64,000 bases of DNA from Opitutales bacterium. Lineage in GTDB: Bacteria; Verrucomicrobiota; Verrucomicrobiia; Opitutales; UBA2987. The translations under genes were made by a program, and so were the position numbers. The notes under the pieces are model-generated. The model did not search any database. It was not told where the DNA came from and worked only from the letters and a program-made list of their open reading frames with translations. The stretch lies in the NCBI GenBank assembly GCA_021772535.1, contig JAJFLV010000234.1, positions 8,483-72,482 on the forward strand. Direction: 5' to 3'. Below are positions 16,104 through 63,801 of the stretch, piece by piece; positions within the stretch are counted from its first letter, which is position 1, and each line of letters starts with the position of its first letter.

Positions 16104-16122
16104 AGGTCGTGGGGGCAAATGA

Positions 16123-18054: not shown

Positions 18055-18121
18055 AGTTCGTGCCTTTTTTAGTGGTTAAATTGGAATGTCCAAGAGGAGG
18101 TTGCTAGGGTTACTTAATTGT

Positions 18122-18721: not shown

Positions 18722-18722
18722 T

Positions 18723-19295: not shown

Positions 19296-19936
19296 TTGTT
19301 TATCGGCGGTATCAGTTCAACCCGTATGGAGCAATTGAACAGTCCCAGGTTTTCATCACGCTCCAGGGATTGCAGTTCCACCTTGTGGACGCTTTCCTTG
19401 ATGATATCCAGATTCTTTATGGTTTCCACATACTCCGTTACCAGCTGGGTTACGGCGGCAGGAGTACCATTGACTGTGCTTTGTAAAGTGACGAGCTTGC
19501 CGGGAGCGGTTTTGCGGTTGCCCAGATCAATTGTTTGGGAATCATAGCTGATGCTTTGCATGAGCATCTCCTCCGGTTTGACCTGGGCAAAAGTGAGGAG
19601 GAAAATAGACGGGGTTACCGGCGCCTTGACGAAATCCGTCAATTCCGAAATTTTTTTGGAGAGGGTGCCAAACTCCCCGCTCAACCTCAGATTATTGTTG
19701 TTCTTGCCAGTGTTTTCGCTGATTTTTGTTTCGAACTCCTTGATGCTCCGCCCAACGCTTAGAGCGGCGATTTCATTCTTGAGGAAAAACATCAACAGGA
19801 CGGCGGCCACAAGAACTATGCCCCAGTTGATTATGAAATCGGTCCGGATAGCCTTGATATCCGGCAATGTCTCCACATTCCGGAAATTGGGGTGCCAGGC
19901 CGACTGAACAATTTTTTTAGGCTTTCTAAGCGCCAT
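19292..19936 (-). CDS. pilN: PilN-like inner-membrane pilus assembly protein
   Basis: 214 aa. It has a short cytoplasmic N-terminus, a TM helix (FIINWGIVLVAAVLLMFFL) and a periplasmic coiled-coil plus alpha/beta part. It overlaps the pilM-like gene by 11 nt. Confidence 0.55.
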   Translation of the reverse strand: MALRKPKKIVQSAWHPNFRNVETLPDIKAIRTDFIINWGIVLVAAVLLMFFLKNEIAALSVGRSIKEFETKISENTGKNNNNLRLSGEFGTLSKKISELTDFVKAPVTPSIFLLTFAQVKPEEMLMQSISYDSQTIDLGNRKTAPGKLVTLQSTVNGTPAAVTQLVTEYVETIKNLDIIKESVHKVELQSLERDENLGLFNCSIRVELIPPINK

Positions 19937-39248: not shown

Positions 39249-40484
39249 TTACCGGGAGAACCATTCGTTGGAGACAAAATTGAAGAACCACCGGGGGTTG
39301 GAAGAACCTTTTTGATACCAAAGCCAACCGTTTTCATTGGAGCTGAAAACAAAAGGGTAAATGGTTGAACCGCTCCATATCCAACCTAAATCAGTACTCC
39401 AGAACCAGATACTGCCGGTTGCTTCACCCGAGGCATTCATCCACCCCAGTTCATTGTGGAAAATCCAGCCGGGGCCGGTTCCCTCGCTAAAAAAGGAACC
39501 GAACCAATCCAGTTCCTTCCAGCCATCGGGATCGCCGGTTGCCTGAGACCAAAGCCCCACTGGGGGCGGACCCAGGTCGTCTGCCAGATTGAGTAAAACG
39601 GCGTTAAGAAGACTGGCCGCATTGTCCTCGGCAAAACGGGTGAAATTGGAAAACTCGTTGGGGTCGCCGTTGCCCACGATGTCGCTCAACCCGCGTATGA
39701 TGAGAAAGGGAACCTGTCGCGTCCAGCAGACATGAGCAATGGCCGTCGATTCCATGTCGACCGAATCCGTGCCCCAAGTCTGCAGGATAAATTGGCTCAA
39801 TCCAAAGTTATCCATGAAAGCCGGTCCGGCTGTTCCAGAACCGCCGATCTTTACCGTGGATTCCCGGTTAAACGGATCAAGTATCTGGAGGGATTCGGCC
39901 GCTTCTTCGGCAATGGACAACAGGTCGGCGTCGGCCTCAAAAAATTCCTTGCGCATAGTAGTAGTCATACCGGCGCGAATGACGGACATGGGGCCAGGGT
40001 GAATCATGCCGAAATTTCCCCGTTGCGGCGTGAACCAGTTGGGCAAAAGAAATTGGCCGGGATTTTGAGGATCTTCCCCAAACCAGCCTCCAAAAGCGTA
40101 ATAATGCCAGCGGGCGGGTACCACTACATCGGCAATCTCCATATTCCGGTTGAGACCACCGGCCACCCCGGCGAAGAGCAAACGGTCAACATCAAAACGC
40201 TCGAGGACCAGCTGGGTGGCAATGGCAGCGTTGATTAGACCGATATTGGTCTTAAATATGATTACAGGCAGGCCATAAACCTCCCCGATAAAGAAATCAA
40301 TGCCGTGAATGTCGCGGACTTCCCCAATGGTTTCTCCCTCGAGTTTCTCCCGAATGCTGTTCAGCTCTCCGCCAAAAGCTGCCACGATGGCGGTGTACCC
40401 AGTGCCATTGGCGCTAAAAAGGTTCGTGTTCGCCATTAAATAAAGGGCTATGAAACAGCTTGTTTTTCTAATTAAAATCCTCAT
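39249..40484 (-). CDS. Secreted PNP/UDP-1 family nucleosidase (MTA/SAH-nucleosidase-like) with a C-terminal Trp-rich module
   Basis: 411 aa with a signal peptide. Motifs include AIVAAFGGEL, LLFAGVAGGL and DMESTAIAHVC...IIRGLSDIVG. The C-terminal 92 aa form the Trp-rich module. Confidence 0.7.
   Translation of the reverse strand: MRILIRKTSCFIALYLMANTNLFSANGTGYTAIVAAFGGELNSIREKLEGETIGEVRDIHGIDFFIGEVYGLPVIIFKTNIGLINAAIATQLVLERFDVDRLLFAGVAGGLNRNMEIADVVVPARWHYYAFGGWFGEDPQNPGQFLLPNWFTPQRGNFGMIHPGPMSVIRAGMTTTMRKEFFEADADLLSIAEEAAESLQILDPFNRESTVKIGGSGTAGPAFMDNFGLSQFILQTWGTDSVDMESTAIAHVCWTRQVPFLIIRGLSDIVGNGDPNEFSNFTRFAEDNAASLLNAVLLNLADDLGPPPVGLWSQATGDPDGWKELDWFGSFFSEGTGPGWIFHNELGWMNASGEATGSIWFWSTDLGWIWSGSTIYPFVFSSNENGWLWYQKGSSNPRWFFNFVSNEWFSR
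39252..39527 (-). other. Trp-rich ~90-aa module, copy 3 (C-terminal in the nucleosidase)
   Basis: DGWKELDWFGSFFSEGTGPGWIFHNELGWMNASGEATGSIWFWSTDLGWIWSGSTIYPFVFSSNENGWLWYQKGSSNPRWFFNFVSNEWFSR. Confidence 0.7.
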
Positions 40485-49853: not shown

Positions 49854-51545
49854 TTAACCTGACTTCTTTTTATTTCGATCCAGCACATTGTGTACCTTGG
49901 TGCTCAGGTCCTCCAAAAGGAACGGCTTGGCAATGAAATCCACATTTTTTTCTATGACACCGCGGCTGGCGATTACATCGGTTGCGTAGCCGGACATAAA
50001 CAGGACCTTAACGTCCGAATAAAGCGTTTGCAGGCGATCAGCCAATTCGCGACCGTTCATTTCGGGCATTACCACGTCGCTGATTAAGAGTTTTATCTCA
50101 CCTGCATGGCGTTCGGCCAAAGTTATAGCCTGATTTGGAGAAGTGGTCTCCAGAACGAAATAGCCCAAACTCTCAAGCATTTCTTTTGTCAGTTTGAGAA
50201 GATCGATTTCATCCTCAACCAACAACACGGTTTCATCATGCCTTTACTGCAATTCTTTGGTTGTATCTCCTGCCTTTATCTCATCCGCTTCCCCCATGTG
50301 GCGAGGGATGTAAATTTCAAAGGTCGTTCCTTTGCCAAGCTCACTATCAATATTAATGAAGCCATTGTTCTGCTTTATAATACCATAGACAGTGGACAGT
50401 CCCAGGCCAGTCCCCTGATACATGGGTTTAGTGGTAAAGAAAGGTTCAAAAATCTTGACCATGGTTGCATTGTCCATACCGCAACCATCATCTCCGACGG
50501 ATAAAAGAACATACTCCCCAGACAGGAATTCCTCCTGATCCGTCGAGATTGGATTATCAAGAGTCATATTTTTTGTTTCTATGACTATCTTGCCAATACC
50601 CGCAAAGGCATCCTTGGCGTTAATACACAAATTGACCAATATCTGATCAAGCTGGGTGGTATCAAAATTGATTGTCCAAAGATCCGGATCAGACTTCAGG
50701 ACTAATTCAACTTCCTCTCCGATCAGACGACAGAGCATCTTGATCATCCCATCTATGGAATCATTCAAGTTCAGTAACTTAGGAGCAATGGTCTGCTTCC
50801 TGGCGTAGGCCAGGAGTTGCCGGGTAACCCCTTTTGCGCTAGCCGCGGCCTGATGGATGAATTTCAAGCGCTTGTGCAGTTTATCCGATGGGTCGGTTTC
50901 GCTCAGACTCAAATCTGCTTGTCCGAGAATCACGGTCAACAAATTGTTGAAATCATGGGAGACGCCTCCCGCCAATTATCCCACTGCTTCCATCTTATGC
51001 GACTGGATCAGCAGGTCCTGCAGTTTTTTCTGCTCGGCCTCCGCCGTTTTGCGCTCTGTGATGTACTCCACAAAAACCACAAATCCATCCTGAACATCCT
51101 TTGAAACGTGATAGGGAACCATCCGTCCATGGAGATGATGGAATTCGCCATTCTTGTCAGGGATACTTTCCTCATATTCGACCATCGTGCCATGCATGGC
51201 CTTACCAATTCGATCCTTCAAACTGTCGTAGACAGTCTTACCAAGAACTTCCCATATATACCGCCCAATTACTTCTTTCGGTTTGATCCCAAAAAATGCT
51301 GAATATTTAGAATTAATAGCCTGGTATCTGCCAAAGGAGTCGATCCAGGCAATAAGCAGGGGATTCGAGTCAAAAAGTAAACGATATTTGGTCTCACTTT
51401 CCTGTAGAGCTTCTTGGGCAATGTAGAGTTCTTCCAGGTTTCGTTTCTGTTCGTGCAAGTCTCCTTCCAACTCAGCCACCCGTTGTTGCACACTGTAAAT
51501 GCGGCGGTGCAGTTGTGATTCCTTGTATGATTCCTCCATGTTCAT
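49854..51545 (-). pseudogene. PAS / HisKA-HATPase / receiver hybrid histidine kinase paralog, interrupted by two in-frame TAA codons (track shows three ORFs: 50976-51545, 50244-50975, 49854-50228)
   Basis: It is colinear with the intact copy at 51919-53601 with no frameshift. TAA at 50978-50976 replaces the CAA of ..AVGQLAGG.., and TAA at 50246-50244 replaces the CAA of ..ESQQGNNE... All catalytic motifs are retained (HDFNNLL, DDGCGMD, GTGLGLS, DVVMPEMNG). Confidence 0.65.
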
Positions 51546-51918
51546 TCCCCTAAAACTTCAACATCCGATTTATTTTATATGGGTACCTGATAAACCCAAA
51601 AATGAAGGACATTGATCTTATTACGGGTATTTGCAAGAAAGTTTAGCCATCTTTATCCTACATTTGGAACGTTAGGTGTTTTTGAAAAGGAATACGCGCA
51701 ATGACAACAACAGGCCCGTAAAGGTTAATGGCAAATCAATGCCAATAGCATTGCCAAAGACACCCACTCGGCCGCTTCAAATACAAGGGGTTTTCGACAA
51801 GCACGAAGTCGGAAATATTCTTCACTACAGGCGAATGCCGGATTGTGTGGAACCGGTGGCTGGCTTCTTCAGCCAACCGGGGAGACCCGATTAGCAAAAT
51901 TTCGCTAATTAGCTTTCC

Positions 51919-53601
51919 TCATTGGCATTTGAGCGCTTCGCGCACCTTGGTGGACAGATCCTCCAGAAAAAATGGCTTGGCAATGAAATTCATGTTTTTT
52001 TCTACGACACCGCGGTGGGCAATCACGTCGGCTGTGTAGCCGGACATAAACAGGATCTCAATGTCTGAGTTAAGCGTTTGCAGTCGATCAGCCAATTCGC
52101 GCCCGTTCATTTCGGGCATTACCACGTCGGTGATTAACAGATTTATCTTAGCCGCATGGCGTTCGGCCAAAGACAGAGCCTGGGTTGGAGAGGCTGCCTC
52201 CAGAACGATATAGCCCAAACTCTCAAGCATTTCTTTTGTCAGTTTGAGAAGATCGATTTCATCCTCAACCAACAACACGATTTCATTATTTCCTTGCTGG
52301 GATTCTTTGGCTACATCTCCAACATTAATCTCATCCACTCCACTCATGTGGCGCGGAAAATAGACCTCAAAGGTTGTTCCTTTTCCAATCTCGCTATGAA
52401 CATTGATGAAGCCCTTGTTCTGCTTGATAATACCATAGACGGAGGACAACCCCATTCCTGTACCTTGATGCAAAGGCTTTGTGGTAAAAAAGGGGTCGAA
52501 AATCTTGGCGATGGTCGCATCGTCCATACCGCAACCATCATCTCTGACGGATAAAAGAACATACTCTCCTGGGACGAACTCTTCCTGCTCCATCAAAGGT
52601 GGGTAATCAAGAATCATGTTTTTTGTTTCTATGACTATCTTGCCCACACCCTCGATGGCATCTTTGGCGTTAACACACAAATTGACCAACACTTGATCAA
52701 TCTGAGAGGGATCAATATTAAGCGCCCAAAGATTCGAACCGGGCTGCAGGACTAATTCAATATCCTCACCGATCAGACGCCAGAGCATCTTGAACATCCC
52801 ATCGACGGATTCATTCAAGTTCAGAACCTTGGGAGCAACGGTCTGCTTCCTGGCAAAGGCCATGAGCTGCCGGGTTACCCCCTTTGCACTTTCCGCGGCC
52901 TTAAGGATATATTGCAGCCGGTCAAGAAGTTTATCCATTGGGTCTTCCCTCATCAAGCCCAATTCTGCGTGTCCGAGAATCACACTCAACAAATTGTTGA
53001 AATCATGGGCAACGCCTCCCGCCAATTGTCCCACTGCCTCCATCTTATGGGATTGGATCAGTTGTTTCTGGAGATTTTCCTGTTCGGCCTCCGCCTTTTT
53101 GCGCTCGGTGATGTCCTCCACAAAAACAACAAAACCATCCTGAACATCCTTTGAAGGGTGATAGGGAACCAACCGCCCATGGAGATAATGGATTTGGCCC
53201 TTCTTGTCAGGAATGTTTTCCTCATATTCGACCATCATGCCCTGCATGGCCTGACTAATTCGGTCTTTCAAATGGCCGTAGATCGTCTTACCAAGGATTT
53301 CCCATATATACTTCCCAAGGACTTCCTCCAGTTCGATCCCAAAAAACATTGAATATTTAGAATTTATAGCCTGGTACCTCTCGAAGGAGTCTACCCAAGC
53401 AATAAGCAACAGATTCGCATCAAAGAGTAAACGGTATTTGGCCTCGCTTTCCCGTAGTGCTTCCTGGGCACTTAACAGTTCTTCTGCATTTCGTTCATGT
53501 TCATGCAAAGCTCCTTCCAACTCAGCCACCCGTTGCTGCAAACAATCATTCCCGCGGGGAAGTTCTGAATCTTTATCTGGTTCCTGCATACGCGTTCCCA
53601 T
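51919..53601 (-). CDS. Hybrid sensor histidine kinase (coiled-coil + PAS + HisKA + HATPase_c + receiver)
   Basis: 560 aa. PAS region (YRLLFDANLLLIAWVD...), H-box (GGVAHDFNNLL), N/G boxes (NLCVNAKDA, DDGCGMD, GTGMGLS) and a C-terminal REC domain (LLVEDE...DVVMPEMNG...KPF). Confidence 0.9.
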   Translation of the reverse strand: MGTRMQEPDKDSELPRGNDCLQQRVAELEGALHEHERNAEELLSAQEALRESEAKYRLLFDANLLLIAWVDSFERYQAINSKYSMFFGIELEEVLGKYIWEILGKTIYGHLKDRISQAMQGMMVEYEENIPDKKGQIHYLHGRLVPYHPSKDVQDGFVVFVEDITERKKAEAEQENLQKQLIQSHKMEAVGQLAGGVAHDFNNLLSVILGHAELGLMREDPMDKLLDRLQYILKAAESAKGVTRQLMAFARKQTVAPKVLNLNESVDGMFKMLWRLIGEDIELVLQPGSNLWALNIDPSQIDQVLVNLCVNAKDAIEGVGKIVIETKNMILDYPPLMEQEEFVPGEYVLLSVRDDGCGMDDATIAKIFDPFFTTKPLHQGTGMGLSSVYGIIKQNKGFINVHSEIGKGTTFEVYFPRHMSGVDEINVGDVAKESQQGNNEIVLLVEDEIDLLKLTKEMLESLGYIVLEAASPTQALSLAERHAAKINLLITDVVMPEMNGRELADRLQTLNSDIEILFMSGYTADVIAHRGVVEKNMNFIAKPFFLEDLSTKVREALKCQ

Positions 53602-53901
53602 GTAAGTTCAACATCCGGTTAACTCCATCTAGGCGGCCAGTACGCCTAATGATCAGGAACATTAGACTTAATAACGTTATTTGCAAGAATTATTTGTAAT
53701 TCATTAACTGACAAAGGGATCGCAATTTGCTTAATGAAAAATTGCGTTGCCGGGAGCGAGGACGACCAGGGGTTTACTGAATAAATAGCCCATAACACCA
53801 TGAAGGGGGTTAAAGCGGTCACGGGGACCTACTTTTAGCGGGACTTATTGGCGTATTTTAGGAATATTTTTATTTTTCATCAAACGGAGCCAACCTATCC
53901 T

Positions 53902-53930
53902 TTGACGGTTTTGTGGCGATGTGGTAATAT
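53902..53930 (+). promoter_or_regulatory. Putative sigma-70-type promoter of the pyrR-pyrB-pyrC operon
   Basis: TTGACG (53902-53907), a 17-nt spacer, then TAATAT (53925-53930), about 115 nt upstream of the likely pyrR ATG. Confidence 0.35.
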
Positions 53931-54047
53931 GGCGTTTAATGTGTGGACGGGAAAGAAAATTTGAGGGTATTTCTAACTGTGAAAAAAAAAATTGAAAAAC
54001 ATATTGCGCCAAGGGGAAAAATCTCCCAATTATTTGCCGCCGAATTG

Positions 54048-54584
54048 ATGAAGGAAGTTAAGCGGATTGAGGGTGTGGAACTGCAAAGGGCCGTAGAAAG
54101 CCTTGTTCAAGCTATCTCCAACCGCCACGGGGAGACAGAAAAGCTGGTCATTGCGAGCATTGCTGACGGGGGAATCGCGCTCGGCAGTAAAATCGCCCAC
54201 CTGCTTTCCGAACGCCTGGGCCGCACCATCTCCCACGGCACGGTGAATGTGGCTTTCCACCGGGACGATATCGGGCGTAAGCCGATACCAAAACCGACTC
54301 ACCGCACGGAATTGCCCTTCGATGTGGAATCGGCAACAGTAATCCTGGTGGATGATGTGCTCTTTACGGGCCGCACAGTGAGGGCGGCGTTGAATGAGAT
54401 TTTCGACTTGGGCCGCCCGGCCCTTGTGGAACTGGCCATCTTGTGCGACCGCGGCAATCGGCGCCTGCCCATTCAGCCCGACTATACTGGATTTACAGAG
54501 GAAACTACCCCCGAACAGAAAGTAGTTCTTGCCATGGATGCGGGAGCAGAGGCGGATAATAATTTAACGATATACGGCGCATGA
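54048..54584 (+). CDS. pyrR: Bifunctional pyr operon regulator / uracil phosphoribosyltransferase PyrR
   Basis: The track ORF starts at GTG 53943. Alignment from memory to B. subtilis PyrR favours ATG 54048 (MKEVKRIEGVELQRAVESL...). PRPP motif VILVDDVLFTGRTVRAAL, then DRGNRRLPIQPDYTG. An ATGA overlap links it to pyrB. Confidence 0.85.
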   Translation: MKEVKRIEGVELQRAVESLVQAISNRHGETEKLVIASIADGGIALGSKIAHLLSERLGRTISHGTVNVAFHRDDIGRKPIPKPTHRTELPFDVESATVILVDDVLFTGRTVRAALNEIFDLGRPALVELAILCDRGNRRLPIQPDYTGFTEETTPEQKVVLAMDAGAEADNNLTIYGA

Positions 54585-55543
54585 GCTTGAGTAGTAACTG
54601 GACGCATAAGGACTTTATCTCAATCGAAGATATCACCCGGGATGAGTTGGAAACCATTTTCAAGCTCGCCTCTTCATTCAAGCAAACGCTTGGCCGAACG
54701 CAAAAGAAACTCCCTTCATTACGCGGAAAGACCCTTGTCAATTTGTTCATGGAACCCAGCACGCGGACGCGGGTTTCCTTTGAAATCGCGGCTTCGCGTC
54801 TGAGCGCCGATTCCATTTTCATATCGACCACTGCAAGCAGCCTCGTGAAGGGGGAAACGCTGAGGGATACTGCTCGAAACATCGTCGCTCTCAACGCGGA
54901 CTTGCTGGTTATGCGGCACTCTGCCGCCGGTTCCGCTTATTACCTGAGCAAAATCATCGACATTCCGGTTATCAATGCGGGCGACGGTGCACACGCCCAC
55001 CCCACCCAGGCATTGCTGGATTGCTTTACTTTGAGGGAGCGCTGGGGCAGCGATTTTACCGGCAAAAAGGTATCCATTCTAGGGGATATCTTGTTCAGCC
55101 GGGTGGCCCGGTCGAACATCTTGGCTTTGCAAAAACTTGGGGCCAAGGTGACCTTGGTAGGCCCCTCCACCCTGGTTCCGGAGTATTTCAGCTCGATGGG
55201 GGTCGAGGTTTCCCACGACCTGAAGAGCGCCTTGGTCGACACGGATGCTCTCATGCTTCTGCGCATTCAACACGAAAGGCAAACCTCTACCCATTTCCCC
55301 TCCCTGGGAGAGTACACCAGCATGTTCGGCATCAATGCCATGCGGGCCTCGTGGCTCAAACCGGGAACCATCATCATGCATCCGGGACCTATCAACCGTG
55401 GGGTGGAAATCGACTCGAAACTGGCCGATTCGGAACAATCCGTGATTCTCGAACAGGTTACAAACGGCATCGTCTGCCGAATGGCGGTGCTTTACCTATG
55501 CGCCAGCGCCGTTCATCCGGTATCCAGTGAGGAGGTAATTTAA
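54581..55543 (+). CDS. pyrB: Aspartate carbamoyltransferase catalytic subunit (canonical, B. subtilis type)
   Basis: 320 aa. Motifs EPSTRTRVSFE, LVKGETLRDT, HAHPTQALLD, LRIQHERQ and MHPGPINRGVEI are present. Confidence 0.92.
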   Translation: MSLSSNWTHKDFISIEDITRDELETIFKLASSFKQTLGRTQKKLPSLRGKTLVNLFMEPSTRTRVSFEIAASRLSADSIFISTTASSLVKGETLRDTARNIVALNADLLVMRHSAAGSAYYLSKIIDIPVINAGDGAHAHPTQALLDCFTLRERWGSDFTGKKVSILGDILFSRVARSNILALQKLGAKVTLVGPSTLVPEYFSSMGVEVSHDLKSALVDTDALMLLRIQHERQTSTHFPSLGEYTSMFGINAMRASWLKPGTIIMHPGPINRGVEIDSKLADSEQSVILEQVTNGIVCRMAVLYLCASAVHPVSSEEVI

Positions 55544-56850
55544 TGAAAATGAACAATGTGCTTTGGATAAGCGGTGGTCGGGTAATCGACCCCGTAAATA
55601 AAAGAGATGGGACCGGTGACGTCTTCTCGGTCGATGGGAAAATCGTTGCGGATTTGAGCGATGAGCAGAAGAAGGAAGCCCAACGTATCGATGCAAGCGG
55701 AAAGGTGGTCAGTCCCGGTTTTGTCGATATCCATGTCCACCTGAGGGAACCGGGGCAAACGCACAAGGAAAACATTGCCAGCGGGACCCGCGCTGCGGCC
55801 GCCGGCGGGTTCACCACAGTCGTCTGCATGCCGAACACCTCCCCCCCGGCCGACAACGCTGGAACCATTCAGTACATCAAGGACGCCATCGCGCGCGAGG
55901 CGGTGGTTAATGTTTACCCAACCGGCTGCATCACAGTGGGACGCAAAGGCGAGATGCTGGCCCCCACCGGTTCTCTACAGAGGGCGGGGGTTATCGCCAT
56001 CACGGATGACGGCGACTGCGTGCAGAATACCGAGATCATGCGGCGGGCGGTCGAGTATGCCAAAATGTTCGATATTTGCGTGATGGACCATTGCCAGGAT
56101 ACCGCCCTGTCCGAAGGAGGCGTCCTGAACGAGGGCGTTAACTCGATCCGTTTCGGCCTGCGTGGCTGGCCCAACTCGGCGGAGGACATTATCGTATCGC
56201 GAGATGTCATACTGTCCTTCTACAGCGGCGCCCACATTCATTTGCAGCACATCACTTCGGCCTATTCAGTTGATATCATCCGGAGGGCCAAACAGCGGGG
56301 CATCCGCATCACCGCCGAAGCCTCACCGCATCATATTTCATTAACTGATGGCTGCTTGAAAACCTACGATGTTAATTTCAAAATGAATCCTCCCCTCCGC
56401 ACGGAGGAGGATCGCCAGGCATTAATCGGCGGATTGCTGGATGGCACCCTGGACTGCATCGCAACCGATCACGCTCCACACACAGATTATGAAAAGGATC
56501 GCGAATTCGATTACGCCCCCTTCGGGGTAATCGGGCTGGAAACAGCACTCCCGGTCTGCCTGCAAACCTTGGTGGAGGGAGGCCACTGCGACCTTTCTTT
56601 TCTCCTATCTCTTCTCACTCACAAGGCGGCCGCAATTCTGAAGTTGGACAAAGGCACACTGAGCCCTGGTTCCGATGCGGACATTACGATTTTTGATCCC
56701 GATCTGGAATGGACGGCAGATCCCGAAGAGTACCAGAGCCGTTCTGCAAATTCTCCCTGGAACGGGCAAAAACTCAAGGGCAAGGTAGTCCAGACCATAG
56801 TGGCTGGAAAGACTGTCTGGAGCCCCCTCTCTGAGGTGGCAGCAAATTGA
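55543..56850 (+). CDS. pyrC: Dihydroorotase
   Basis: 435 aa. Motifs PGFVDIHVHLREPG and IATDHAPH are present. A TAATG overlap links it to pyrB. Confidence 0.9.
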   Translation: MKMNNVLWISGGRVIDPVNKRDGTGDVFSVDGKIVADLSDEQKKEAQRIDASGKVVSPGFVDIHVHLREPGQTHKENIASGTRAAAAGGFTTVVCMPNTSPPADNAGTIQYIKDAIAREAVVNVYPTGCITVGRKGEMLAPTGSLQRAGVIAITDDGDCVQNTEIMRRAVEYAKMFDICVMDHCQDTALSEGGVLNEGVNSIRFGLRGWPNSAEDIIVSRDVILSFYSGAHIHLQHITSAYSVDIIRRAKQRGIRITAEASPHHISLTDGCLKTYDVNFKMNPPLRTEEDRQALIGGLLDGTLDCIATDHAPHTDYEKDREFDYAPFGVIGLETALPVCLQTLVEGGHCDLSFLLSLLTHKAAAILKLDKGTLSPGSDADITIFDPDLEWTADPEEYQSRSANSPWNGQKLKGKVVQTIVAGKTVWSPLSEVAAN

Positions 56851-57024
56851 ATCACGGGCGAGTCCCCGGGCCCGGGTGGGCTTGAGAAAAGCCTCTAGCC
56901 CTAGCAGATGAATTGGCCATGAAATGAAACCTATATTTTATTGAAAGATCCCCTCCCATCCATAAGTAAATTAATTGGCTTGCTTTGAATTATTGTCATA
57001 GACAAAATTTTCTTTTCAGGAAGG

Positions 57025-57051
57025 AGACGGCGAGAGCCGTCTTTGGTTTTT
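57025..57051 (+). terminator. Rho-independent terminator-like hairpin (or attenuator) between pyrC and the second transcarbamylase cluster
   Basis: AGACGGC-gaga-GCCGTCT (7-bp GC-rich stem, GNRA loop) followed by ttggttttt. It lies 175 nt after the pyrC stop and 65 nt before ATG 57117. Confidence 0.5.
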
Positions 57052-57116
57052 CAAAACACATAAGGTCAACTAAAAAACAAGAATAAGCATTCACCCATAA
57101 GAAAGAAAGGACACAC

Positions 57117-58073
57117 ATGAGAAGTTTTAAAGGCCGTGATATTCTATCGCTCAAAGGATTTGAGCGTCATGAATTCTTAAGAGTATTCGAGGTATGCGAC
57201 GAGCTGAGACCCCATGCAGCCAACCGCCGTAACTGCGATTTGCTGAAGGACAAAACCTTGCTGACGGCCTTTTACCAGCCGAGCACCCGCACCCGTCTGG
57301 CGACCGAAGCAGCGATGCACCGGCTGGGCGGGCATGTTCTCGGTTTTTCCGATGCCAAAATGACTCGCGCGGGAGACTTTTACATGGAATCGATAAAAGA
57401 CACCGTCAACATGCTGGAATACTACGGCGACGTAATCGCAATGCGCCACTACCTGCAAGGCGCTCCCCATGAAGCGGCCAAACACGCCTCGGTCCCCGTC
57501 ATCAATTGCGGCGATGGCTGGGGCGAGCACCCTACCCAGGTGCTGACCGATCTTTACACCATCTACAAGGAAAAGGGCACTCTGGACGGACTGAAAATGC
57601 TCTGTGTAGGCGACATGCGCATGCGCACCATGCACTCCATCCTCTACGCTCTTTCCCAGTTCGATATCGAGGCTTTTGTCGTCGGCCCGCCGGAAATGTC
57701 TTTACTGGATGATTTCAAAGCGGAAATTGACGAACGCAATGTGCAATACAGGGAGGTGGAAACTGCGGAAGAAGTCATCGACCAGGCAGATGTCATTTAC
57801 ATGGAGCCAGTGGTGCAGGCCGATTATACCAAATCCCGGGATGAATCCGGCGAAGAAAAAGGAGTAACCCCGGCAGCCTACAAGGTTACCCGGGAAATGA
57901 TGCGCAATAAAGGAAAGAGCGACGCCATTATACTGCACTCCTTGCCCCGGATGGATGAACTCCCATCAGATGTGGACTCCACCCGCCACCAGCGTTACTG
58001 GGTGGAGGCCTTCAACGGCGTAGTCATGCGCATGGCCCTGCTGGCCCTGGTTCTGGGAGCGGTCGAGGGTTGA
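57117..58073 (+). CDS. ATCase-like transcarbamylase paralog (E. coli PyrB-type fold) with a non-canonical second-substrate site
   Basis: 318 aa. The carbamoyl-phosphate site is conserved (QPSTRTRLATE, GEHPTQVL, HSLPRMDE). Residues that bind aspartate in ATCase are not conserved in my by-eye alignment: KKGET becomes DFYME, and TRVQKER becomes EPVVQAD. Confidence 0.75.
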   Translation: MRSFKGRDILSLKGFERHEFLRVFEVCDELRPHAANRRNCDLLKDKTLLTAFYQPSTRTRLATEAAMHRLGGHVLGFSDAKMTRAGDFYMESIKDTVNMLEYYGDVIAMRHYLQGAPHEAAKHASVPVINCGDGWGEHPTQVLTDLYTIYKEKGTLDGLKMLCVGDMRMRTMHSILYALSQFDIEAFVVGPPEMSLLDDFKAEIDERNVQYREVETAEEVIDQADVIYMEPVVQADYTKSRDESGEEKGVTPAAYKVTREMMRNKGKSDAIILHSLPRMDELPSDVDSTRHQRYWVEAFNGVVMRMALLALVLGAVEG

Positions 58074-58116
58074 ATTTAAACACAAACAAGAAAAACCAAG
58101 AGAAAGAACCAAACTA

Positions 58117-59094
58117 ATGCAGACTTATCTTAGGGGTCGTGACATGATCACGACCCAGGAATGGACAAAAGAGGAAATCGATACCGTCATGGATGTGGCC
58201 ATGGAGCTGAAAAGAAACAGGGCTCTGGGGCTGCCCCATGCCTACCTGCGGGACAAGGTGTTGACCATGCTCTTCTTTTTCTCCAGCACGCGGACACGGG
58301 CCTCCTTCGAGGCGGGCATAGCCCAGCTCGGTGGCCATGGCATGTTTTTAGCCAGCTCCGCCACCCAAATCTCCCACGGCGACACCACCAAGGAGATCGG
58401 TGAAATTCTGGGCCGCTACACCGATGGATTGGCCATCCGCCATTGCGATTGGGGAGTGGGCACGCAATATCTGCGCTGGGCAGCAGAAGCCAGCCGCGTT
58501 CCGGTTCTCAACATGCAATGCGAAACCTATCACCCTTTTCAGATTCTGGCCGACCTACAGACGATCATGGAAAAGAAGGGTGATCCACGGGGCAAAACGA
58601 TTACGGTTAGCTGGGCCTATGCGGCCAGTTACCAAAAACCGATGAGCGTTCCCCAAAGCCTCATTCTACTCATGACCCGCTATGGAATGAACGTGCGGCT
58701 GGTGCACCCACCGGAGTTCAAGCTCATGCCACATATCGTGGAACAAGCCCAGGAAAACGCCCGTAAGCATCACGGCAGCCTGGAACTGATGGACGATTTT
58801 GAAGCCGGCATCAAAGGAACCGATGTCGTCTATGCGAAAAGCTGGGGCGCTATGAATACCACCACCGATGATGAGGAAGGCGCTCGGATCATCGACAAAT
58901 ACAAGGACTGGATCACGGACGAGCGCCGCATGGCAATGGCCGATCGGGACGCCATTTACATGCACCCTCTTCCCGCCGACAGAAACGTGGAAGTGAGCGA
59001 TGGCGTCATCGACGGGCCTCAATCGGTGGTCTTCGACCAGGCGGAGAATCGCCTGCATGCGCAAAAGGCAGTTATGGCCCTGACCATGAACTAG
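58117..59094 (+). CDS. YgeW-like (knotted) carbamoyltransferase, short form
   Basis: 325 aa. It shows FSSTRTRASFE and QISHGDTTKEIGEIL. The segment KTITVSWAYAASYQKPMSVPQSLILLMTRYGMNVRLVHP matches, as I recall it, E. coli YgeW KKIAMTWAYSPSYGKPLSVPQGIIGLMTRFGMDVTLAHP. It also has MHPLPADRN, and HPFQ in place of the HPTQ motif. Confidence 0.7.
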   Translation: MQTYLRGRDMITTQEWTKEEIDTVMDVAMELKRNRALGLPHAYLRDKVLTMLFFFSSTRTRASFEAGIAQLGGHGMFLASSATQISHGDTTKEIGEILGRYTDGLAIRHCDWGVGTQYLRWAAEASRVPVLNMQCETYHPFQILADLQTIMEKKGDPRGKTITVSWAYAASYQKPMSVPQSLILLMTRYGMNVRLVHPPEFKLMPHIVEQAQENARKHHGSLELMDDFEAGIKGTDVVYAKSWGAMNTTTDDEEGARIIDKYKDWITDERRMAMADRDAIYMHPLPADRNVEVSDGVIDGPQSVVFDQAENRLHAQKAVMALTMN

Positions 59095-59262
59095 GGAAAA
59101 TTTTTGCGGGACTTGGATGGGTCGGAAATTTGCCTTCCCGAAGTATTACGGGATCGGGGCAAATATTCGATCCATTCCTTTTCCCATTAATCAATTCCAA
59201 GAAACAGGGATATTGGGAAATTCGGTATTTTTAAAGACAATCAATAAAAAAAGGAGGCAATC

Positions 59263-60210
59263 ATGGCCAAAAAAATCGCAGTTGTGGCAATCGGTGGTAA
59301 TTCGCTGATTAAGGATAAAATTCACCAAACCGTCCGGGATCAATACATCGCGGCTACAGAAACCTGCGAGCACATCGTTTCCATGATCAAGAGTGGATGG
59401 GATGTCGTCATCGGGCACGGCAACGGCCCCCAGGTTGGTTTCATGCTGCGCCGTTCGGAACTGGCGCTGCACGAACTGCACGAAGTGCCTCTGGAGGTGT
59501 GCGGGGCCAACAGCCAGGGCGCCATTGGCTATGCGCTCCAACAAAACCTCTTTAATGAATTCAAGGAATTGGGTATCGACAAAAAAGCCGTCACTGTAGT
59601 GACCCAAGTGGAGGTATCGCGGAACGATCCCGGATTTCAAGATCCTTCTAAACCGATTGGTTCGTTTATGGACGAAGAGGATGCCGAGAGGCGCCGCGAA
59701 ATTGACGGATGGAACGTGGTAGAAGACGCCGGACGAGGCTGGAGGCGGGTGGTAGCTTCACCCATACCCATCCGTATCGTAGAGGTGGAGGCGATCAAGA
59801 GCCTGATCGAAAATGGGTTCGTGGTTATAGCGGCAGGAGGAGGAGGCATCCCGGTGGTGGCCGATGAGGAGGGTAATCTCGTTGGAATAGCCGCCGTCAT
59901 CGATAAGGACCATGCCAGCGCGCTGTTAGCCAGGGAAATAGGGGCGGAACTCTTTATTGTCAGCACGGCGGTGGAAAAAGTGGCCCTGAACTTCGGCAAA
60001 CCGAACCAGCAATGGATTGATCGCATGACCTTGGTCGAGGCCAAACAATACCTGGCGGAGGGGACCCACTTTGCCGGTGGCAGTATGGCCCCGAAAATTG
60101 AGGCGGTTATCAATTTTCTGGAAGGGGGCGGCAAAGAAGCCATCATTACCGACCCGGAAAACCTGGAACGGGCTATGAAGGGTGAGACCGGCACCCGCAT
60201 CGTGCGTTAA
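59263..60210 (+). CDS. arcC: Carbamate kinase
   Basis: 315 aa. Motifs KKIAVVAIGGNSL, VIGHGNGPQVG and AAGGGGIPVV are present, with the size and C-terminus typical of ArcC/YqeA. Confidence 0.9.
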   Translation: MAKKIAVVAIGGNSLIKDKIHQTVRDQYIAATETCEHIVSMIKSGWDVVIGHGNGPQVGFMLRRSELALHELHEVPLEVCGANSQGAIGYALQQNLFNEFKELGIDKKAVTVVTQVEVSRNDPGFQDPSKPIGSFMDEEDAERRREIDGWNVVEDAGRGWRRVVASPIPIRIVEVEAIKSLIENGFVVIAAGGGGIPVVADEEGNLVGIAAVIDKDHASALLAREIGAELFIVSTAVEKVALNFGKPNQQWIDRMTLVEAKQYLAEGTHFAGGSMAPKIEAVINFLEGGGKEAIITDPENLERAMKGETGTRIVR

Positions 60211-60232
60211 CTGGATTCATCTACCTGGCTTT

Positions 60233-61591
60233 TTATTTTTCAGGGAACAACTCGGCCAAAGCCAAGCGAGCCCTCTCCAACGCCTCTGGGGGCAAGGCTA
60301 TTCGCTCTGCATCAAAATCTTGCGGAATGGTCGCATCGATCCCCAATTTGGCCGACATGCCTTCGACAGATGAAGGATCGAGCCGGTTGCAGAATACTTT
60401 GGGCACGACAAACATGTCGGTATCCGCCTGAAAACGGGTGGCCAGGGCAAAGAGGATATCCTCTTCGTTGTAAATATCGATATCTTCATCCACGGCGATA
60501 GCCAGCTTGAGATAGGAATCCAAACCAAAGAGGAGCATTAGGGCATGCCTGGCCTGGCCCTCCACTCTTTTTTTAAGTGAAATATAGGCATGAAAATGTG
60601 TCCCCGATTTGGGATAATTGAGGGCCTTGACATCGGGCACAACCTCCCGCAAGCGCTCGAATACATGGGCTTCCTTGGCGCAACGGCCAAGTAAAAGATG
60701 TTCGCTCGAATTGCCTGGAATGATGTCCAGATAAATGGGCTCCCGACGCCGGGTAACGGCTTTGACCATGAAAATATTGCGCGTGGAGCGGTAGGTCGAG
60801 TAACCGGTGTATTCCCCGTAGGGGCCTTCATCCTCGGTGGCATTTGCCAAAAGCTCACCCTCTATGACAATCTCGGCTGAAGCCGGAACCTCCATGTCGA
60901 TGGTACGGCATTTTACCAAATCGATTGGTTTTCCGAGAAGTCCCCCCGCGATGTCCAATTCGTCCACTTCCATGGCCACCTTGGCGGCGGCCGCCAGGTA
61001 AATGGCTGGATGGGCCCCGATGACCACTGCCACCTCGAGATTTTTGCCCTTGTTTTGTGAGCGAATCAGATGATCCCAAATATGCCCCCGTGAATGCAGG
61101 CTGGCCCCGAACCGGTCCCTGCCTTTCATCTGCAGGCGCTGGAAGCTGAGATTACGCACTCCGGTGTCCGGGTCCTTGCACATTAATATACCCGAGCCGA
61201 TGTAACGTCCGGCATCGGCCTGGAAATGGCGGCTGATGGGAAGGGTTTCTACATCCACCTCGTCACCGGTAAAAACCACTTCCTGCACCGGGCCAGAATC
61301 GACAATTCGGGGCGCTATCGGGTTATTCTCCGCCCGCAGCCAAGCCTGGTTGAAACCGGCAGCATCGGGCGCTCCTGCGATGCGGGCAATTCGGTCGCGG
61401 TGGGCAAAGATATTGGCCACCACCGGCATGTCGAAGCCATTTGGTTTTTCAAACCACAGCATCGGGAATTTTTGCTCTTTCTCCAGTTCGAGAGCCAAAG
61501 CCGTGGGGGTATAATCCATCTCCATGGGGTTTTTGAAGCGGAGGATCTCCTCTTCCGGCAATGAGTCGAGAAATGTTCTCAGGGAAGCCAT
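60233..61591 (-). CDS. UbiD-family (prenyl-FMN-dependent) decarboxylase
   Basis: 452 aa with a UbiD-like N-terminus (LRTFLDSLPEEEILRFKNPMEMDYTPTALA). It lies 14 nt downstream of ubiX. Confidence 0.8.
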   Translation of the reverse strand: MASLRTFLDSLPEEEILRFKNPMEMDYTPTALALELEKEQKFPMLWFEKPNGFDMPVVANIFAHRDRIARIAGAPDAAGFNQAWLRAENNPIAPRIVDSGPVQEVVFTGDEVDVETLPISRHFQADAGRYIGSGILMCKDPDTGVRNLSFQRLQMKGRDRFGASLHSRGHIWDHLIRSQNKGKNLEVAVVIGAHPAIYLAAAAKVAMEVDELDIAGGLLGKPIDLVKCRTIDMEVPASAEIVIEGELLANATEDEGPYGEYTGYSTYRSTRNIFMVKAVTRRREPIYLDIIPGNSSEHLLLGRCAKEAHVFERLREVVPDVKALNYPKSGTHFHAYISLKKRVEGQARHALMLLFGLDSYLKLAIAVDEDIDIYNEEDILFALATRFQADTDMFVVPKVFCNRLDPSSVEGMSAKLGIDATIPQDFDAERIALPPEALERARLALAELFPEK

Positions 61592-61605: not shown

Positions 61606-62202
61606 TTATGATTCGGTTTTATCGGACCGTTCGGGACCTTGCCAGCGCTCGAACAAATCCTCGTTCAATTCTATATCCAGCAAATCGAGGGCGCGGTTGA
61701 GAGTCTGGTTGATGATGTCGTCCAGCCCTTTCGGACGGTGGTAAAAAGCTGGCACCGGCGGCATGATGATGGCTCCCAGTTCGGCCGCCCGTTTCATGTT
61801 TTCAAGGTGTCCCCGATGCAAGGGGGTTTCCCGAACAAGAAGAAGTAATTTCCGCTGATCTTTCAAAATCACATCCGCAGCCCGCAAGATCAAATTATCG
61901 CTGGTCGAATAAGCGATCCCGGAGAGAGTTCGGATTGAGCAAGGCGCAACAATCATGCCATGTGTTTTAAAAGAACCGGAGCAGATATTGGCAGCGATAT
62001 CTCCAAAGGAACCCACCTCATCGGCCAGCTCTTCCACTCGTGCAATGGAATAATCGGTCTCCAACAGCACGGTGCGTTTACCGGCATTGCTCAATACCAG
62101 GTAGGTTTTCACTCCCTCCACCTCCCGCAATATTTCCAGAAGCCGAACGCCGTAAATAACGCCGCTGGCACCGGTAATGCCGATAATCAGTCGTTTAGTC
62201 AT
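61606..62202 (-). CDS. ubiX: Flavin prenyltransferase UbiX
   Basis: The track ORF starts at TTG 62247. The ATG at 62202 gives MTKRLIIGITGASGVIYGVRLLE, a typical UbiX start. The motif ...APCSIRTLSGIAYS... is present. Confidence 0.88.
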   Translation of the reverse strand: MTKRLIIGITGASGVIYGVRLLEILREVEGVKTYLVLSNAGKRTVLLETDYSIARVEELADEVGSFGDIAANICSGSFKTHGMIVAPCSIRTLSGIAYSTSDNLILRAADVILKDQRKLLLLVRETPLHRGHLENMKRAAELGAIIMPPVPAFYHRPKGLDDIINQTLNRALDLLDIELNEDLFERWQGPERSDKTES

Positions 62203-62271
62203 GATCCTACGCTGCCTCTTTATTAATAAATTCAGCTTCTCCTGCAAGGGAACAACAACTCGCCCTTCTTT

Positions 62272-63801
62272 TCATTTTTCCACTAGATCCTTCCCTGATT
62301 TTCCGGCCATCAGCAATCCGATTTCTTCGATACGATCCCTGGAAGCGCGTATTTGGCCAACGATCCGGCCTTCGAAAAAAACCAGCAAGCGGTCGCTCAG
62401 GGCGATTAATTCCTCCAGATCGGAGGAGATCAGCAAAACGGCGGCCCCGGCATCCCTTTGCGCTGCAATTTGCCGGCGCACGAACTCGGTTGCACCGATG
62501 TCGATCCCCCGTGTCGGTTCATTGACCAGAAGAAGGCGAGGTTTCCGGTGCAGCTCCCGCGCAATGACCACCTTTTGCTGGTTTCCTCCCGAAAGATTGA
62601 CGATTTCATCGTCCACCCCGCCAAGGCGGACATCGTATTGACGTACAAGATCCATGGCATGACTCTTGATCATTTTGTAGCGAAGAAACCCATTCCGGGC
62701 AAAGGGAGGATGGTCGAATTCGTGCAAAACAAAGTTTTCCGCCACCGAAAAGGGGAGGACAACTCCCATGCGGTGTCGATCCTCCGGCACATGGGCGAGT
62801 CCAAGACAGCTTAATTTTCGAGGAGAAAGATTCGTCGCCACAGAACCATCAAGATGAATTTCCCCGCCCGCCACCGGCATTAACCCGGCCAAGGCCAGGG
62901 CCAACTCGCTCTGCCCATTGCCAGAGACACCGGCCACGCCGACGATTTCACCGCTTCGCACCTCCAGGGACACCTCCCTCACTGCCGGCAAATCGCGCTC
63001 ATCATTGACGAAAAGATTTTTCACAGACAGGACATTCTCTCCTTTTGGCCCCTCTCTGGGTGGAGGTTCGAGGAGAACTTCACGCCCTACCATAAGCTTG
63101 GCTAACATGCGCGGGCTGGCCTTGGCGGTGACAACAGTGGCGACTTCCCGGCCATCACGCAATACCGTTACACGATCACTCACCTGCATGACCTCATCGA
63201 GCTTGTGGGTGATAAAAATAACGGTAAGACCCCGCCCGGCCATCTCCTTGAGAAAAACCAGTAACCGGTCCGTTTCCTGCGGTGTGAGTACCGCTGTGGG
63301 CTCATCGAGGATCAGAAGATCAACCCCATGATACAAGGTCTTTAAAATTTCAACCCGCTGTTGCTCACCCACGGATAAGGTATGGATTAGCGCTTTCGGA
63401 TCGATTTTTAAACCAAATTCCCTGCTTAGTTTTTCAATTTTCTCCTCCACTCGGTCCATGTGCCGAAGGATTTTCCAGGGCGGGTATTGACCGAGGATGA
63501 TATTTTCCGCCACGGTGAGAGTAGGAACCAGCATGAAATGCTGATGGACCATACCGATTCTCCGCTTGATGGCATCCTTGGGGGACCGCAGGTCAAGGTG
63601 TTCTCCATTGTAGATGACCTGCCCCGAGTCAGGTTGATGAAGTCCGTAAACGATGCTCATGAGGACTGTCTTACCGGCCCCGTTTTCGCCCAGCAGGCAA
63701 TGGATTTCACCTTTCCTGATTTCGAGACTGACACCGCGGTTGGCCCTGACGCCGGGAAAGGTTTTTACTATTTTATCCAGTTTGAGGAGCGTTTCACTCA
63801 T
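62272..63801 (-). CDS. ABC importer ATP-binding protein with tandem ATPase domains (CUT2 sugar/nucleoside type)
   Basis: 509 aa. Walker A motifs GENGAGKT and GVSGNGQS, signatures LSVGEQQRVEI and LSGGNQQKVVIA, Walker B motifs LLILDEPT and LLLVNEPTRGID, and MVHQHFMLV. Confidence 0.88.
   Translation of the reverse strand: MSETLLKLDKIVKTFPGVRANRGVSLEIRKGEIHCLLGENGAGKTVLMSIVYGLHQPDSGQVIYNGEHLDLRSPKDAIKRRIGMVHQHFMLVPTLTVAENIILGQYPPWKILRHMDRVEEKIEKLSREFGLKIDPKALIHTLSVGEQQRVEILKTLYHGVDLLILDEPTAVLTPQETDRLLVFLKEMAGRGLTVIFITHKLDEVMQVSDRVTVLRDGREVATVVTAKASPRMLAKLMVGREVLLEPPPREGPKGENVLSVKNLFVNDERDLPAVREVSLEVRSGEIVGVAGVSGNGQSELALALAGLMPVAGGEIHLDGSVATNLSPRKLSCLGLAHVPEDRHRMGVVLPFSVAENFVLHEFDHPPFARNGFLRYKMIKSHAMDLVRQYDVRLGGVDDEIVNLSGGNQQKVVIARELHRKPRLLLVNEPTRGIDIGATEFVRRQIAAQRDAGAAVLLISSDLEELIALSDRLLVFFEGRIVGQIRASRDRIEEIGLLMAGKSGKDLVEK

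Follow-up and report, generated by a model that had tools for sequence, protein, structure and literature searches.

Two tandem carbamoyltransferase genes and a carbamate kinase gene in an Opitutales bacterium: a putative catabolic module of reductive uric acid breakdown

The window analyzed here is a stretch of 64,000 nucleotides from an Opitutales bacterium (Verrucomicrobiota, UBA2987; GenBank assembly GCA_021772535.1, contig JAJFLV010000234.1, positions 8,483–72,482 of the forward strand). It carries three carbamoyltransferase genes. The first is a genuine pyrB that belongs to a pyrR-pyrB-pyrC operon; the next two, termed TC-A and TC-B, are followed by a carbamate kinase gene (CK). This raises the question of what two further carbamoyltransferases of unlike type do beside a carbamate kinase, i.e. 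whether the three genes supplement biosynthesis or form a catabolic unit. Carbamate kinase converts carbamoyl phosphate and ADP to ATP, CO2 and NH3.

The reading favored here, at a probability of about 0.55, is that TC-A, TC-B and CK are the catabolic module of a variant of the reductive uric acid pathway, where TC-B would do the job of YgeW, TC-A would replace YgeY and two ATP would be formed. A first-pass annotation of this DNA, made from the sequence alone, had offered a catabolic, ATP-yielding route as one of two possibilities, and comparative genomics now backs it. Its guess that the substrates were ureido intermediates of pyrimidine or purine breakdown finds support on the purine side, from the gene clusters described below; pyrimidine degradation found none.

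The reductive uric acid (2,8-dioxopurine) route was worked out in 2025 in E. coli and Clostridium (PMC12507026; bioRxiv 10.1101/2025.04.24.650524). According to these reports, XdhD reduces urate to 2,8-dioxopurine and YgfK or UacX reduces the ring, after which 2,3-diureidopropionate (DUPA) arises by the opening of both rings, catalyzed by SsnA and HyuA. The same work identified the substrate of YgeW: the enzyme phosphorolyses one of the DUPA ureido groups to carbamoyl phosphate, from which YqeA then forms ATP. The other ureido group is hydrolyzed by YgeY, an M20 hydrolase, and YgeX converts diaminopropionate to pyruvate (PMC12507026; bioRxiv 10.1101/2025.04.24.650524). The component families discussed here have been flagged before, the pseudo-ATCases in 2013 and the YgeW pathway in 2025. 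No description of a tandem, doubly phosphorolytic end stage without YgeY was found in the literature searched, whose coverage did not extend to subscription journals.

Residue patterns of TC-A and TC-B

The products of pyrB, TC-A and TC-B each display both OTCace Pfam domains (Pfam scan). The S-T-R-T-R and H-P-x-Q carbamoyl phosphate motifs that the first-pass annotation had read in all three are present in the translations, as PSTRTR and HPTQ in the pyrB product and in TC-A, and as SSTRTR and HPFQ in TC-B.

The TC-A sequence was analyzed in an alignment of 83 family sequences (L002–L087) with the aspartate carbamoyltransferases (ATCases) of E. coli and Pyrococcus abyssi. The carbamoyl phosphate site and the arginine that binds the alpha-carboxylate are retained: all 83 sequences have STRTR, R105, H134, Q137 and R167. 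R229 is replaced by proline in all 83, and the local sequence YMEPVVQADY is found where ATCase has RxQxxER. The HP(L/G)P motif reads HSLP and K84 is tyrosine, again in every sequence, the tyrosine being inside an invariant loop TRAGDFY(Q/M)ES. In ATCase, Lys84 is supplied by the neighboring chain. There are also insertions relative to ATCase, two residues in the 80s loop and five in the 240s loop. E228 and the QAD insertion are candidates for taking the place of R229/Q231. The residues R229 and Q231, which bind the aspartate beta-carboxylate, together with HPLP define ATCase (PMC4016543; PMC4581275). Because these defining features are lost, TC-A is, judged by its residues, not an aspartate carbamoyltransferase; the pattern is that of a protein whose site for the beta-carboxylate of aspartate is lost and whose carbamoyl phosphate site and alpha-carboxylate arginine are intact.

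Family scores are divided. TC-A passes the ATCase model TIGR00670 narrowly (249.4 vs 236.95), which explains the public naming of its relatives as ATCase, and is below the cut-off of NF002032 (221.7 vs 263). The annotation of TC-A as aspartate carbamoyltransferase is found in all its carriers. The best match to a solved structure is the archaeal-type ATCase of P. abyssi (240 bits). In a neighbor-joining tree, computed without bootstrap support values, the TC-A sequences cluster tightly next to ATC II.

A group of ATCase-branch paralogs, the pseudo-ATCases, was described by Barba et al. (2013; PMC4016543). It includes the ureidoglycine carbamoyltransferase (UGTCase) Rxyl_2847, the only member characterized, which phosphorolyses allantoate in a uricase/allantoinase context, and a Nocardioides pseudo-ATCase with a ygeW homologue, xdhABC and hyuA as its neighbors (PMC4016543). 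TC-A belongs to the pseudo-ATCases. It is located beside ATC II, displays HSLP, has lost RxQ, has a genuine pyrB in the same window and is found in a purine-catabolic context; the assignment is made from the published descriptions, and within the group only from context and the HSLP motif. Placement in one of the three Barba subgroups by motif was attempted and no assignment was reached. The motif given for the RxQ position, GX[SC] or VXP (PMC4016543), is not reconcilable with the EPVVQ of TC-A.

The TC-A sequence is highly conserved. The median pairwise identity among the 83 sequences is 78.5% and the minimum 69.7%, 119 of 318 columns are invariant, and in probe comparisons with locus L002 TC-A is the most conserved protein of its cluster. 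Such conservation across phyla reflects either very strong constraint or recent horizontal spread of the module. AlphaFold models of TC-A and TC-B are of low confidence (pLDDT 62.0 and 55.8, respectively), their input alignments having comprised only sequences at least 77% identical.

TC-B is annotated publicly as ornithine carbamoyltransferase (OTCase) or N-acetylornithine carbamoyltransferase (AOTCase). Its scores are below the cut-offs of the OTC models (NF001986, 264.4 vs 306; TIGR00658, 248.8 vs 280.85) and of the AOTC model (NF003384, 254.5 vs 288), and far below those for YgeW (NF005538, 179.5 vs 453; TIGR03316, 167.7 vs 500). In place of the OTC motifs DxxxSMG and HCLP, the sequence has AKSWGAM and HPLP. 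In the same tree TC-B groups with AOTCase and YgeW, apart from OTCase. A proline-rich loop with an extended 120s loop is the signature of knotted transcarbamylases. TC-B displays a proline-rich loop, SWAYAASYQKPMSVPQS, that aligns with YgeW TWAYSPSYGKPLSVPQG, and a 120s loop of the YgeW length. The motifs NMQC(D/E)xxHPxQ, SWAYxxSYxKPxSVPQ and Y(A/P)KSWG are common to TC-B and YgeW, and the position of AOTCase E144 is Gln in TC-B, as it is in YgeW. The residues proposed to bind the second substrate of YgeW are Q160, D124, S200, K203, K270 and L331 (PMC4581275). Equivalents of Q160, S200, K203, K270 and L331 are kept in 43–44 of 44 TC-B orthologues and D124 falls in a gap, the residue list being itself a proposal.

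The first-pass annotation had called TC-B a YgeW-like knotted carbamoyltransferase. The description is fair for its loops and clade; by score and by architecture, TC-B is not a YgeW family member. Both paralogs fall outside the characterized ATC, OTC and putrescine carbamoyltransferase (PTC) families by scores, residues and motifs. The grouping with those families that the first-pass annotation had named as one outcome that would overturn its reading was therefore not found.

Conservation of the gene triad and its association with purine-catabolic genes

Searches with TC-A retrieved 7998 proteins at E ≤ 1e-20, the top 120 of which are at least 80% identical to it. Carriers number hundreds of species in Actinomycetota, Chloroflexota, Verrucomicrobiota, Planctomycetota, Spirochaetota and other phyla; cultivable ones include Fodinibacter luteus, Ardenticatena maritima and a Nocardioides strain. 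The counts that follow refer to the best 80 of at least 583 species-level TC-A loci, with one genome per species. These 80 span Actinomycetota, Chloroflexota, Spirochaetota, Phycisphaerae, Thermotogae and Omnitrophota and include a 'Candidatus Moanabacter' genome in which TC-A is 93% identical; identity across genome loci is 73–93%. Neighbors were counted by tblastn with defined probes, which replaced a clustering of open reading frames that was contaminated by spurious antisense frames in high-GC genomes.

A TC-B orthologue is adjacent to TC-A in 42 of the 80 loci and the full TC-A/TC-B/CK triad is found in 31. A further five have CK directly after TC-A, thus the kinase gene is immediately 3′ of the transferase gene or genes in 36/80. 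The arrangement is far from chance and represents a conserved unit.

The triad is embedded in clusters of SsnA, XDH (xanthine dehydrogenase)-type and reductase genes across at least seven phyla. Within reach of TC-A there is an SsnA-like amidohydrolase in 48/80 loci, a selenium-dependent XDH or XdhD-type molybdoenzyme in 57/80 and an F420 luciferase-like reductase in 42/80. At least one of these three types lies within 10 kb in 63/80, and in 37 of the 42 loci that are 18 kb or longer. Curated models support these identities: the molybdoenzyme passes TIGR03311 for selenium-dependent XDH (974 vs 830), and the SsnA-like protein of L002 scores just under its cut-off (426 vs 444). Genes for 8-oxoguanine deaminase, adenine deaminase and D-hydantoinase are also found near TC-A. 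In L008, where TC-A is 93% identical to that of the window, the triad lies among XdhC/XDH genes and a gene for a true SsnA (541 vs 444), and in L090 SsnA, the triad, XDH, cofG/cofH-like genes and a luciferase-like reductase form one cluster. The order in Nocardioides L057 is that of the Nocardioides case of Barba et al.

As a separate observation, the cofG/cofH-like radical-SAM pair of L090 adjoins the luciferase-like reductase gene (15857–19416), which suggests a local supply of deazaflavin cofactor.

The terminal genes of the known pathway are rare in these clusters: YgeY is near TC-A in 3/80 loci and YgeX in 2/80. Two loci from Verrucomicrobiota, L176 and L177, show an alternative arrangement. 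A true YgeW (64.5% identical to that of E. coli) is followed directly by a TC-A orthologue (75–79% identical, with the HSLP and FYQES motifs), in a cluster that also encodes SsnA, XDH, CK, a reductase resembling YgfK/UacX and an enzyme resembling HyuA. The 21 kb contain no gene for an M20 peptidase. The SsnA clusters that do have an M20 gene (L179, L180 and E. coli L088) contain a single transferase. True YgeW accompanies TC-A in two Phycisphaerales loci as well.

Most clusters also have two pyridoxal phosphate (PLP) enzymes of the PALP fold beside TC-A, where YgeX would be (examples in Table 1). The larger, about 485–499 aa, is cysK-like with a weak score and is also found in clusters that contain YgeY. 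The smaller, about 408–451 aa, is threonine-synthase-like (ThrC-like, weak score) with an N-terminal Cys-rich motif, and its gene is directly 5′ of TC-A in most clusters. This position agrees with a TC-A product bearing a free alpha-amino group.

The module may be pictured as follows. TC-B would carry out a YgeW-type phosphorolysis of one ureido group of DUPA, and TC-A would phosphorolyse the N-alpha (2-)ureido group in place of hydrolysis by YgeY. The 2-ureido group is proposed for TC-A because the enzyme derives from ATCase, which acts on N-carbamoyl-alpha-amino acids, and because it has kept the alpha-carboxylate arginine and lost the beta-carboxylate site. If TC-A takes the 2-ureido group, the 3-ureido group would be left to its partner, in agreement with the proposal of Liu et al. 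on YgeW. With both ureido groups released as carbamoyl phosphate, CK could raise the yield from one ATP per purine to as many as two. TC-A itself may be a so far unassigned enzyme, a phosphate-dependent carbamoyltransferase of N-alpha-carbamoyl-2,3-diaminopropionate (or DUPA), which together with a YgeW-type enzyme would allow two carbamoyl phosphates and hence two ATP per ring.

Several observations weigh against the proposed module. The tree carries no support values. The ureido group attacked by YgeW is a matter of dispute between the two groups of 2025, and the order of cleavage is named as an open question in a commentary. No TC-B-like gene is within reach of TC-A in 22/80 loci, and in 15/80 there is only a variant of about 50% identity, further away; TC-B and CK without TC-A occur in three sister loci (L092, L093 and L174). 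YgeY coexists with TC-A in L010, L038 and L068, an Amidohydro_3 gene is beside TC-A in seven loci, and an M28 peptidase gene is near SsnA in L008 and L090. HyuA is found in only 17/80 TC-A neighborhoods, thus it is an assumption that these clusters form DUPA. In the window and 6 kb beyond it, tblastn detected no homologue of SsnA, XDH, the luciferase-like reductase, HyuA or PALP proteins, and since these upstream genes are missing, membership of the pathway in this genome rests on orthology and on the relatives. YgeX, YgeY and YgfK were likewise not found in the window by tblastn.

Some of the same observations would be expected if TC-B and CK served reductive purine breakdown and TC-A acted on another ureido compound, such as allantoate or a product of a 5-ureidodihydrouracil branch, and did not replace YgeY. 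UGTCase is likewise of the ATCase branch and paired with a carbamate kinase, its substrate allantoate is also a diureido acid, and its motif H(T/S)LP (PMC4581275) covers the HSLP of TC-A. YgeY or other hydrolase candidates do occur beside TC-A in some loci, and TC-A is dispensable in the sister lineages. However, no uricase/allantoinase-type context is apparent in the annotated TC-A examples, which were not probed systematically for it, the context being SsnA, the reductase and selenium-dependent XDH; the hydantoinase-type genes nearby best match dihydropyrimidinase/HyuA and not allantoinase; and TC-A directly adjoins YgeW or TC-B and PLP enzymes whose substrate must be a free alpha-amino acid. 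A separate substrate for TC-A is thus considered unlikely, and replacement of YgeY by TC-A is preferred.

The proposed replacement of YgeY would have several consequences. Clusters that combine TC-A with a YgeW-type enzyme and have no YgeY are a natural experiment on the order of ureido cleavage. If the proposal is correct, the ATCase ancestry of TC-A argues that YgeW-type enzymes take the 3-ureido group, which would settle the disputed order, and the substrate-level ATP yield in the final stage of purine fermentation would be doubled. The pathway would extend beyond gut anaerobes to Actinomycetota, Chloroflexota and Verrucomicrobiota of soil and peat, and a systematic misannotation would be corrected: relatives found in thousands of metagenome proteins and in no fewer than 583 species-level genomes are named, where they have a name, aspartate, ornithine or N-acetylornithine carbamoyltransferase.

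The locus in the window and its neighbors

The features of the locus are listed in Table 1. The four open reading frames of pyrB, TC-A, TC-B and CK have the coordinates and the plus-strand orientation reported by the first-pass annotation. CK passes both carbamate kinase models and is 49% identical to E. coli YqeA.

Table 1. Features of the TC-A/TC-B/CK locus, its neighbors in the window and examples of the PLP enzyme pair in other loci (scores are given against cut-offs)
Feature	Position	Strand	Basis or remark
pyrR	53943–54584	+	NCBIfam NF003545 152 vs cut-off 140; neighbor in separate transcription unit, outside the module
pyrB, genuine aspartate carbamoyltransferase, 320 aa	54581–55543	+	NF002032 386 vs 263; neighbor, outside the module
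pyrC, dihydroorotase	55543–56850	+	TIGR00857 417.9 vs 279; neighbor, outside the module
Terminator-like hairpin and T-run closing the pyr operon	57023–57053 (hairpin 57023–57044)	+	Promoter/terminator scan
TC-A, carbamoyltransferase ("pseudo-ATCase"), 318 aa	57117–58073	+	Family scans, residue alignment
TC-B, compact carbamoyltransferase of the YgeW/AOTCase clade, 325 aa	58117–59094	+	Family scans, tree, alignment
TC-B/CK spacer, 168 bp, with weak hairpin 59151–59173	59095–59262	+	
CK, carbamate kinase, 315 aa	59263–60210	+	NF009007 419.2 vs 266; TIGR00746 364.6 vs 358.25
UbiD-family decarboxylase, heads a convergent, apparently independent cluster	60233–61591	-	TIGR00148 327.5 vs 244.85
UbiX flavin prenyltransferase	61606–62247	-	NF004685 263 vs 188
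BMP/CUT2-type ABC transporter ATPase	62272–63801	-	Permeases, Bmp lipoprotein and Amidohydro_2 gene beyond the window end
PLP enzyme pair, L002	1994–4845		
PLP enzyme pair, L177	11495–12721 and 19555–21012		

The pyr operon is of the ordinary type. Its pyrB product retains Arg229 in the alignment. The pyrR open reading frame probably has its true start internally, near 54048; gene calls on identical contigs give 201 aa and 178 aa. A terminator-like hairpin had been noted 3′ of pyrC and was found again, with a T-run, in the 266 bp spacer between pyrC and TC-A. Terminator-like sites in the scan as a whole are not enriched (11 vs 8.7 expected from shuffled sequence). This hairpin and its flank are kept in sisters L092 and L093, where window positions 56969–57065 align to the spacer between pyrC and TC-B. 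No sigma-70 promoter was found upstream of TC-A on the plus strand, in a scan whose overall counts equal those of shuffled sequence, and an Rfam scan of 53400–60400 at E up to 1 gave no riboswitch, PyrR site or leader.

The TC-B/CK spacer of the window compares with about 150 bp in L008 and 7–13 bp in other relatives; gaps of 10–13 bp between module genes were recorded in relatives. Its sequence has no match elsewhere in the window or in any locus. Neither the window nor any of the loci yielded repeats, and the idea that repeats or mobile elements gave rise to this spacer and to those flanking TC-A was dropped.

The first-pass annotation had treated the extra genes as a second carbamoyl phosphate pathway appended to pyrR-pyrB-pyrC. 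The comparison does not bear this out. No pyr genes are found beside TC-A in any of the 80 other loci. In L092, L093 and L174 the gene order is that of the window, pyrR-pyrB-pyrC, then TC-B-CK, then UbiD-UbiX-ABC, with TC-A missing, and the sequence passes from the pyrC terminator straight to TC-B. The absence is a clean indel of about 1 kb just 3′ of the conserved terminator (window about 57066–58111; L092/L093 9989–10000), thus close relatives are polymorphic for the presence of TC-A. Because the terminator is conserved, pyr adjacency is absent from the other TC-A loci and sisters lack TC-A, the position of TC-A, TC-B and CK next to pyrRBC is incidental and lineage-specific. In L174, genes for SsnA, a MocA-like protein and adenosine deaminase are present 2.3 kb beyond pyrR.

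This bears on the other possibility that had been raised, that CK makes carbamoyl phosphate anabolically for pyrB, and perhaps for arginine synthesis, with the extra transferases as biosynthetic isozymes. The transferase and kinase genes do adjoin the pyr genes, TC-A is just over the ATCase cut-off of TIGR00670, and the window lacks carAB, as had been stated: no carB-sized gene is present in the 64 kb, where the only open reading frames longer than 900 aa encode an RCC1/CARDB protein and a class-I tRNA synthetase. Against this, a conserved terminator separates the two units, the pyr adjacency is not repeated in other loci, R229, K84 and HPLP are missing from every TC-A sequence, TC-B is below every OTC and AOTC cut-off, and the conserved partners of the module are catabolic purine genes. 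Nothing beyond the proximity of pyrB and the narrow family score speaks for anabolic supply, and it is considered very improbable.

On the other side of CK, the UbiD cluster continues in L006 (9357–15824), with one or two Amidohydro_2 genes. UbiD homologues in 80 metagenome loci have as neighbors a molybdoenzyme of XDH-like type and an amidohydrolase distantly related to the SsnA/TRZ-ATZ type. A prFMN (prenylated flavin mononucleotide)-dependent xanthine-8-carboxylate decarboxylase is known from lumazine degradation. The UbiD cluster may encode a pathway that acts on a carboxylated N-heterocycle.

It could be asked whether, in the lineage of the window, the transferases and kinase serve this convergent UbiD-UbiX/BMP-ABC/Amidohydro_2 cluster, harvesting the ureido product of an undescribed pathway for such a heterocycle. 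The order TC-B-CK/UbiD-UbiX-ABC-Bmp-Amidohydro_2 is kept in the window, L092, L093 and L174. BMP-type ABC transporter genes are convergent to CK in actinobacterial purine clusters too (L028, L029, L031, L043, L044 and L060), and both the XDH-like and SsnA-like neighbors of UbiD homologues and the known xanthine-8-carboxylate decarboxylase are in line with the idea. However, none of the 80 UbiD loci has TC-A, TC-B or CK beside the UbiD homologue, this UbiD is found among TC-A loci only on the window's own contig, and the UbiD cluster and the module are on opposite strands. A role confined to this lineage is held to be improbable. The same count of 0/80 led to rejection of the idea that the UbiD/UbiX cluster and the triad are in general functionally linked. 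The assignment of the module to a variant of reductive uric acid breakdown is retained as the more probable reading.

Three further features of the window concern other subjects. On the minus strand at 51919–53601 there is an open reading frame for a 560-aa PAS/histidine-kinase/receiver hybrid, followed by a near-duplicate, the whole region being 49854–53601 with a GC content of 0.45, below that of its surroundings. The duplicate has two in-frame TAA codons where the intact copy has Gln (after ...MEAVG at about 50976–50978 and after ...KELQ at about 50244–50246), and it therefore reads as three open reading frames. It is probably a young pseudogene. A 411-aa member of the PNP_UDP_1 phosphorylase superfamily (39249–40484, minus strand) is the only other nucleoside-related gene among ten large open reading frames of the window that were scanned. 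The 2115-aa RCC1-repeat/CARDB protein (9771–18054, minus strand) is encoded beside a type II/III secretin gene.

Comparison with known systems

The arginine and agmatine deiminase pathways, where a catabolic OTCase or PTCase acts with carbamate kinase, follow the same principle of ureido phosphorolysis and ATP formation by the kinase. The present locus differs in having two unlike transferases in tandem, no deiminase and no antiporter, and OTC motifs are absent.

TC-A resembles the catalytic chain of ATCase (archaeal and E. coli ATC II; PDB 1ml4, 2rgw) in length, in the full carbamoyl phosphate site and in R167. It differs in the change of R229 to Pro and of K84 to Tyr, in HSLP and in the loop insertions, and a genuine pyrB is 1.5 kb upstream. 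Like the pseudo-ATCases, TC-A is annotated as ATCase, displays the H(S/T)LP motif, has lost RxQ and has a carbamate kinase neighbor and a purine-catabolic context. Its context, as far as annotated, differs from that of the UGTCase and consists of SsnA, the reductase and selenium-dependent XDH.

TC-B is 41% identical to the AOTCase of X. campestris (PDB 3kzc) and shares with it DVVYAKSWGA and the proline-rich loop. Unlike AOTCase, it lacks the extended 80s loop (AOTCase Trp77 and Glu92), has Gln in place of E144 and HPLP in place of HCLP, and has no arginine-biosynthesis context. With YgeW it shares the proline-rich loop and four to five of the six proposed substrate residues. TC-B is however the shorter protein, 325 vs 396 aa at 34% identity, and lacks the 16- and 11-residue insertions of YgeW as well as its terminal helices, with no C-terminal tail. 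YgeW is marked by extra N- and C-terminal helices and by two extra helices in the 240s loop.

The closest parallel is the YgeW/YqeA step of E. coli and Clostridium sporogenes itself, where a knotted-clade transferase and a carbamate kinase, in SsnA/XDH clusters, pass a ureido group by way of carbamoyl phosphate to ATP. The TC-A clusters differ from the pathway of 2025 in that a second transferase, TC-A, is present and YgeY and YgeX are mostly missing. Their reductase is often F420 luciferase-like rather than YgfK; one survey, which counted any PF00185 protein as 'YgeW', reported an SsnA cluster variant with an F420 luciferase-family enzyme from Chloroflexota (PMC12507026).

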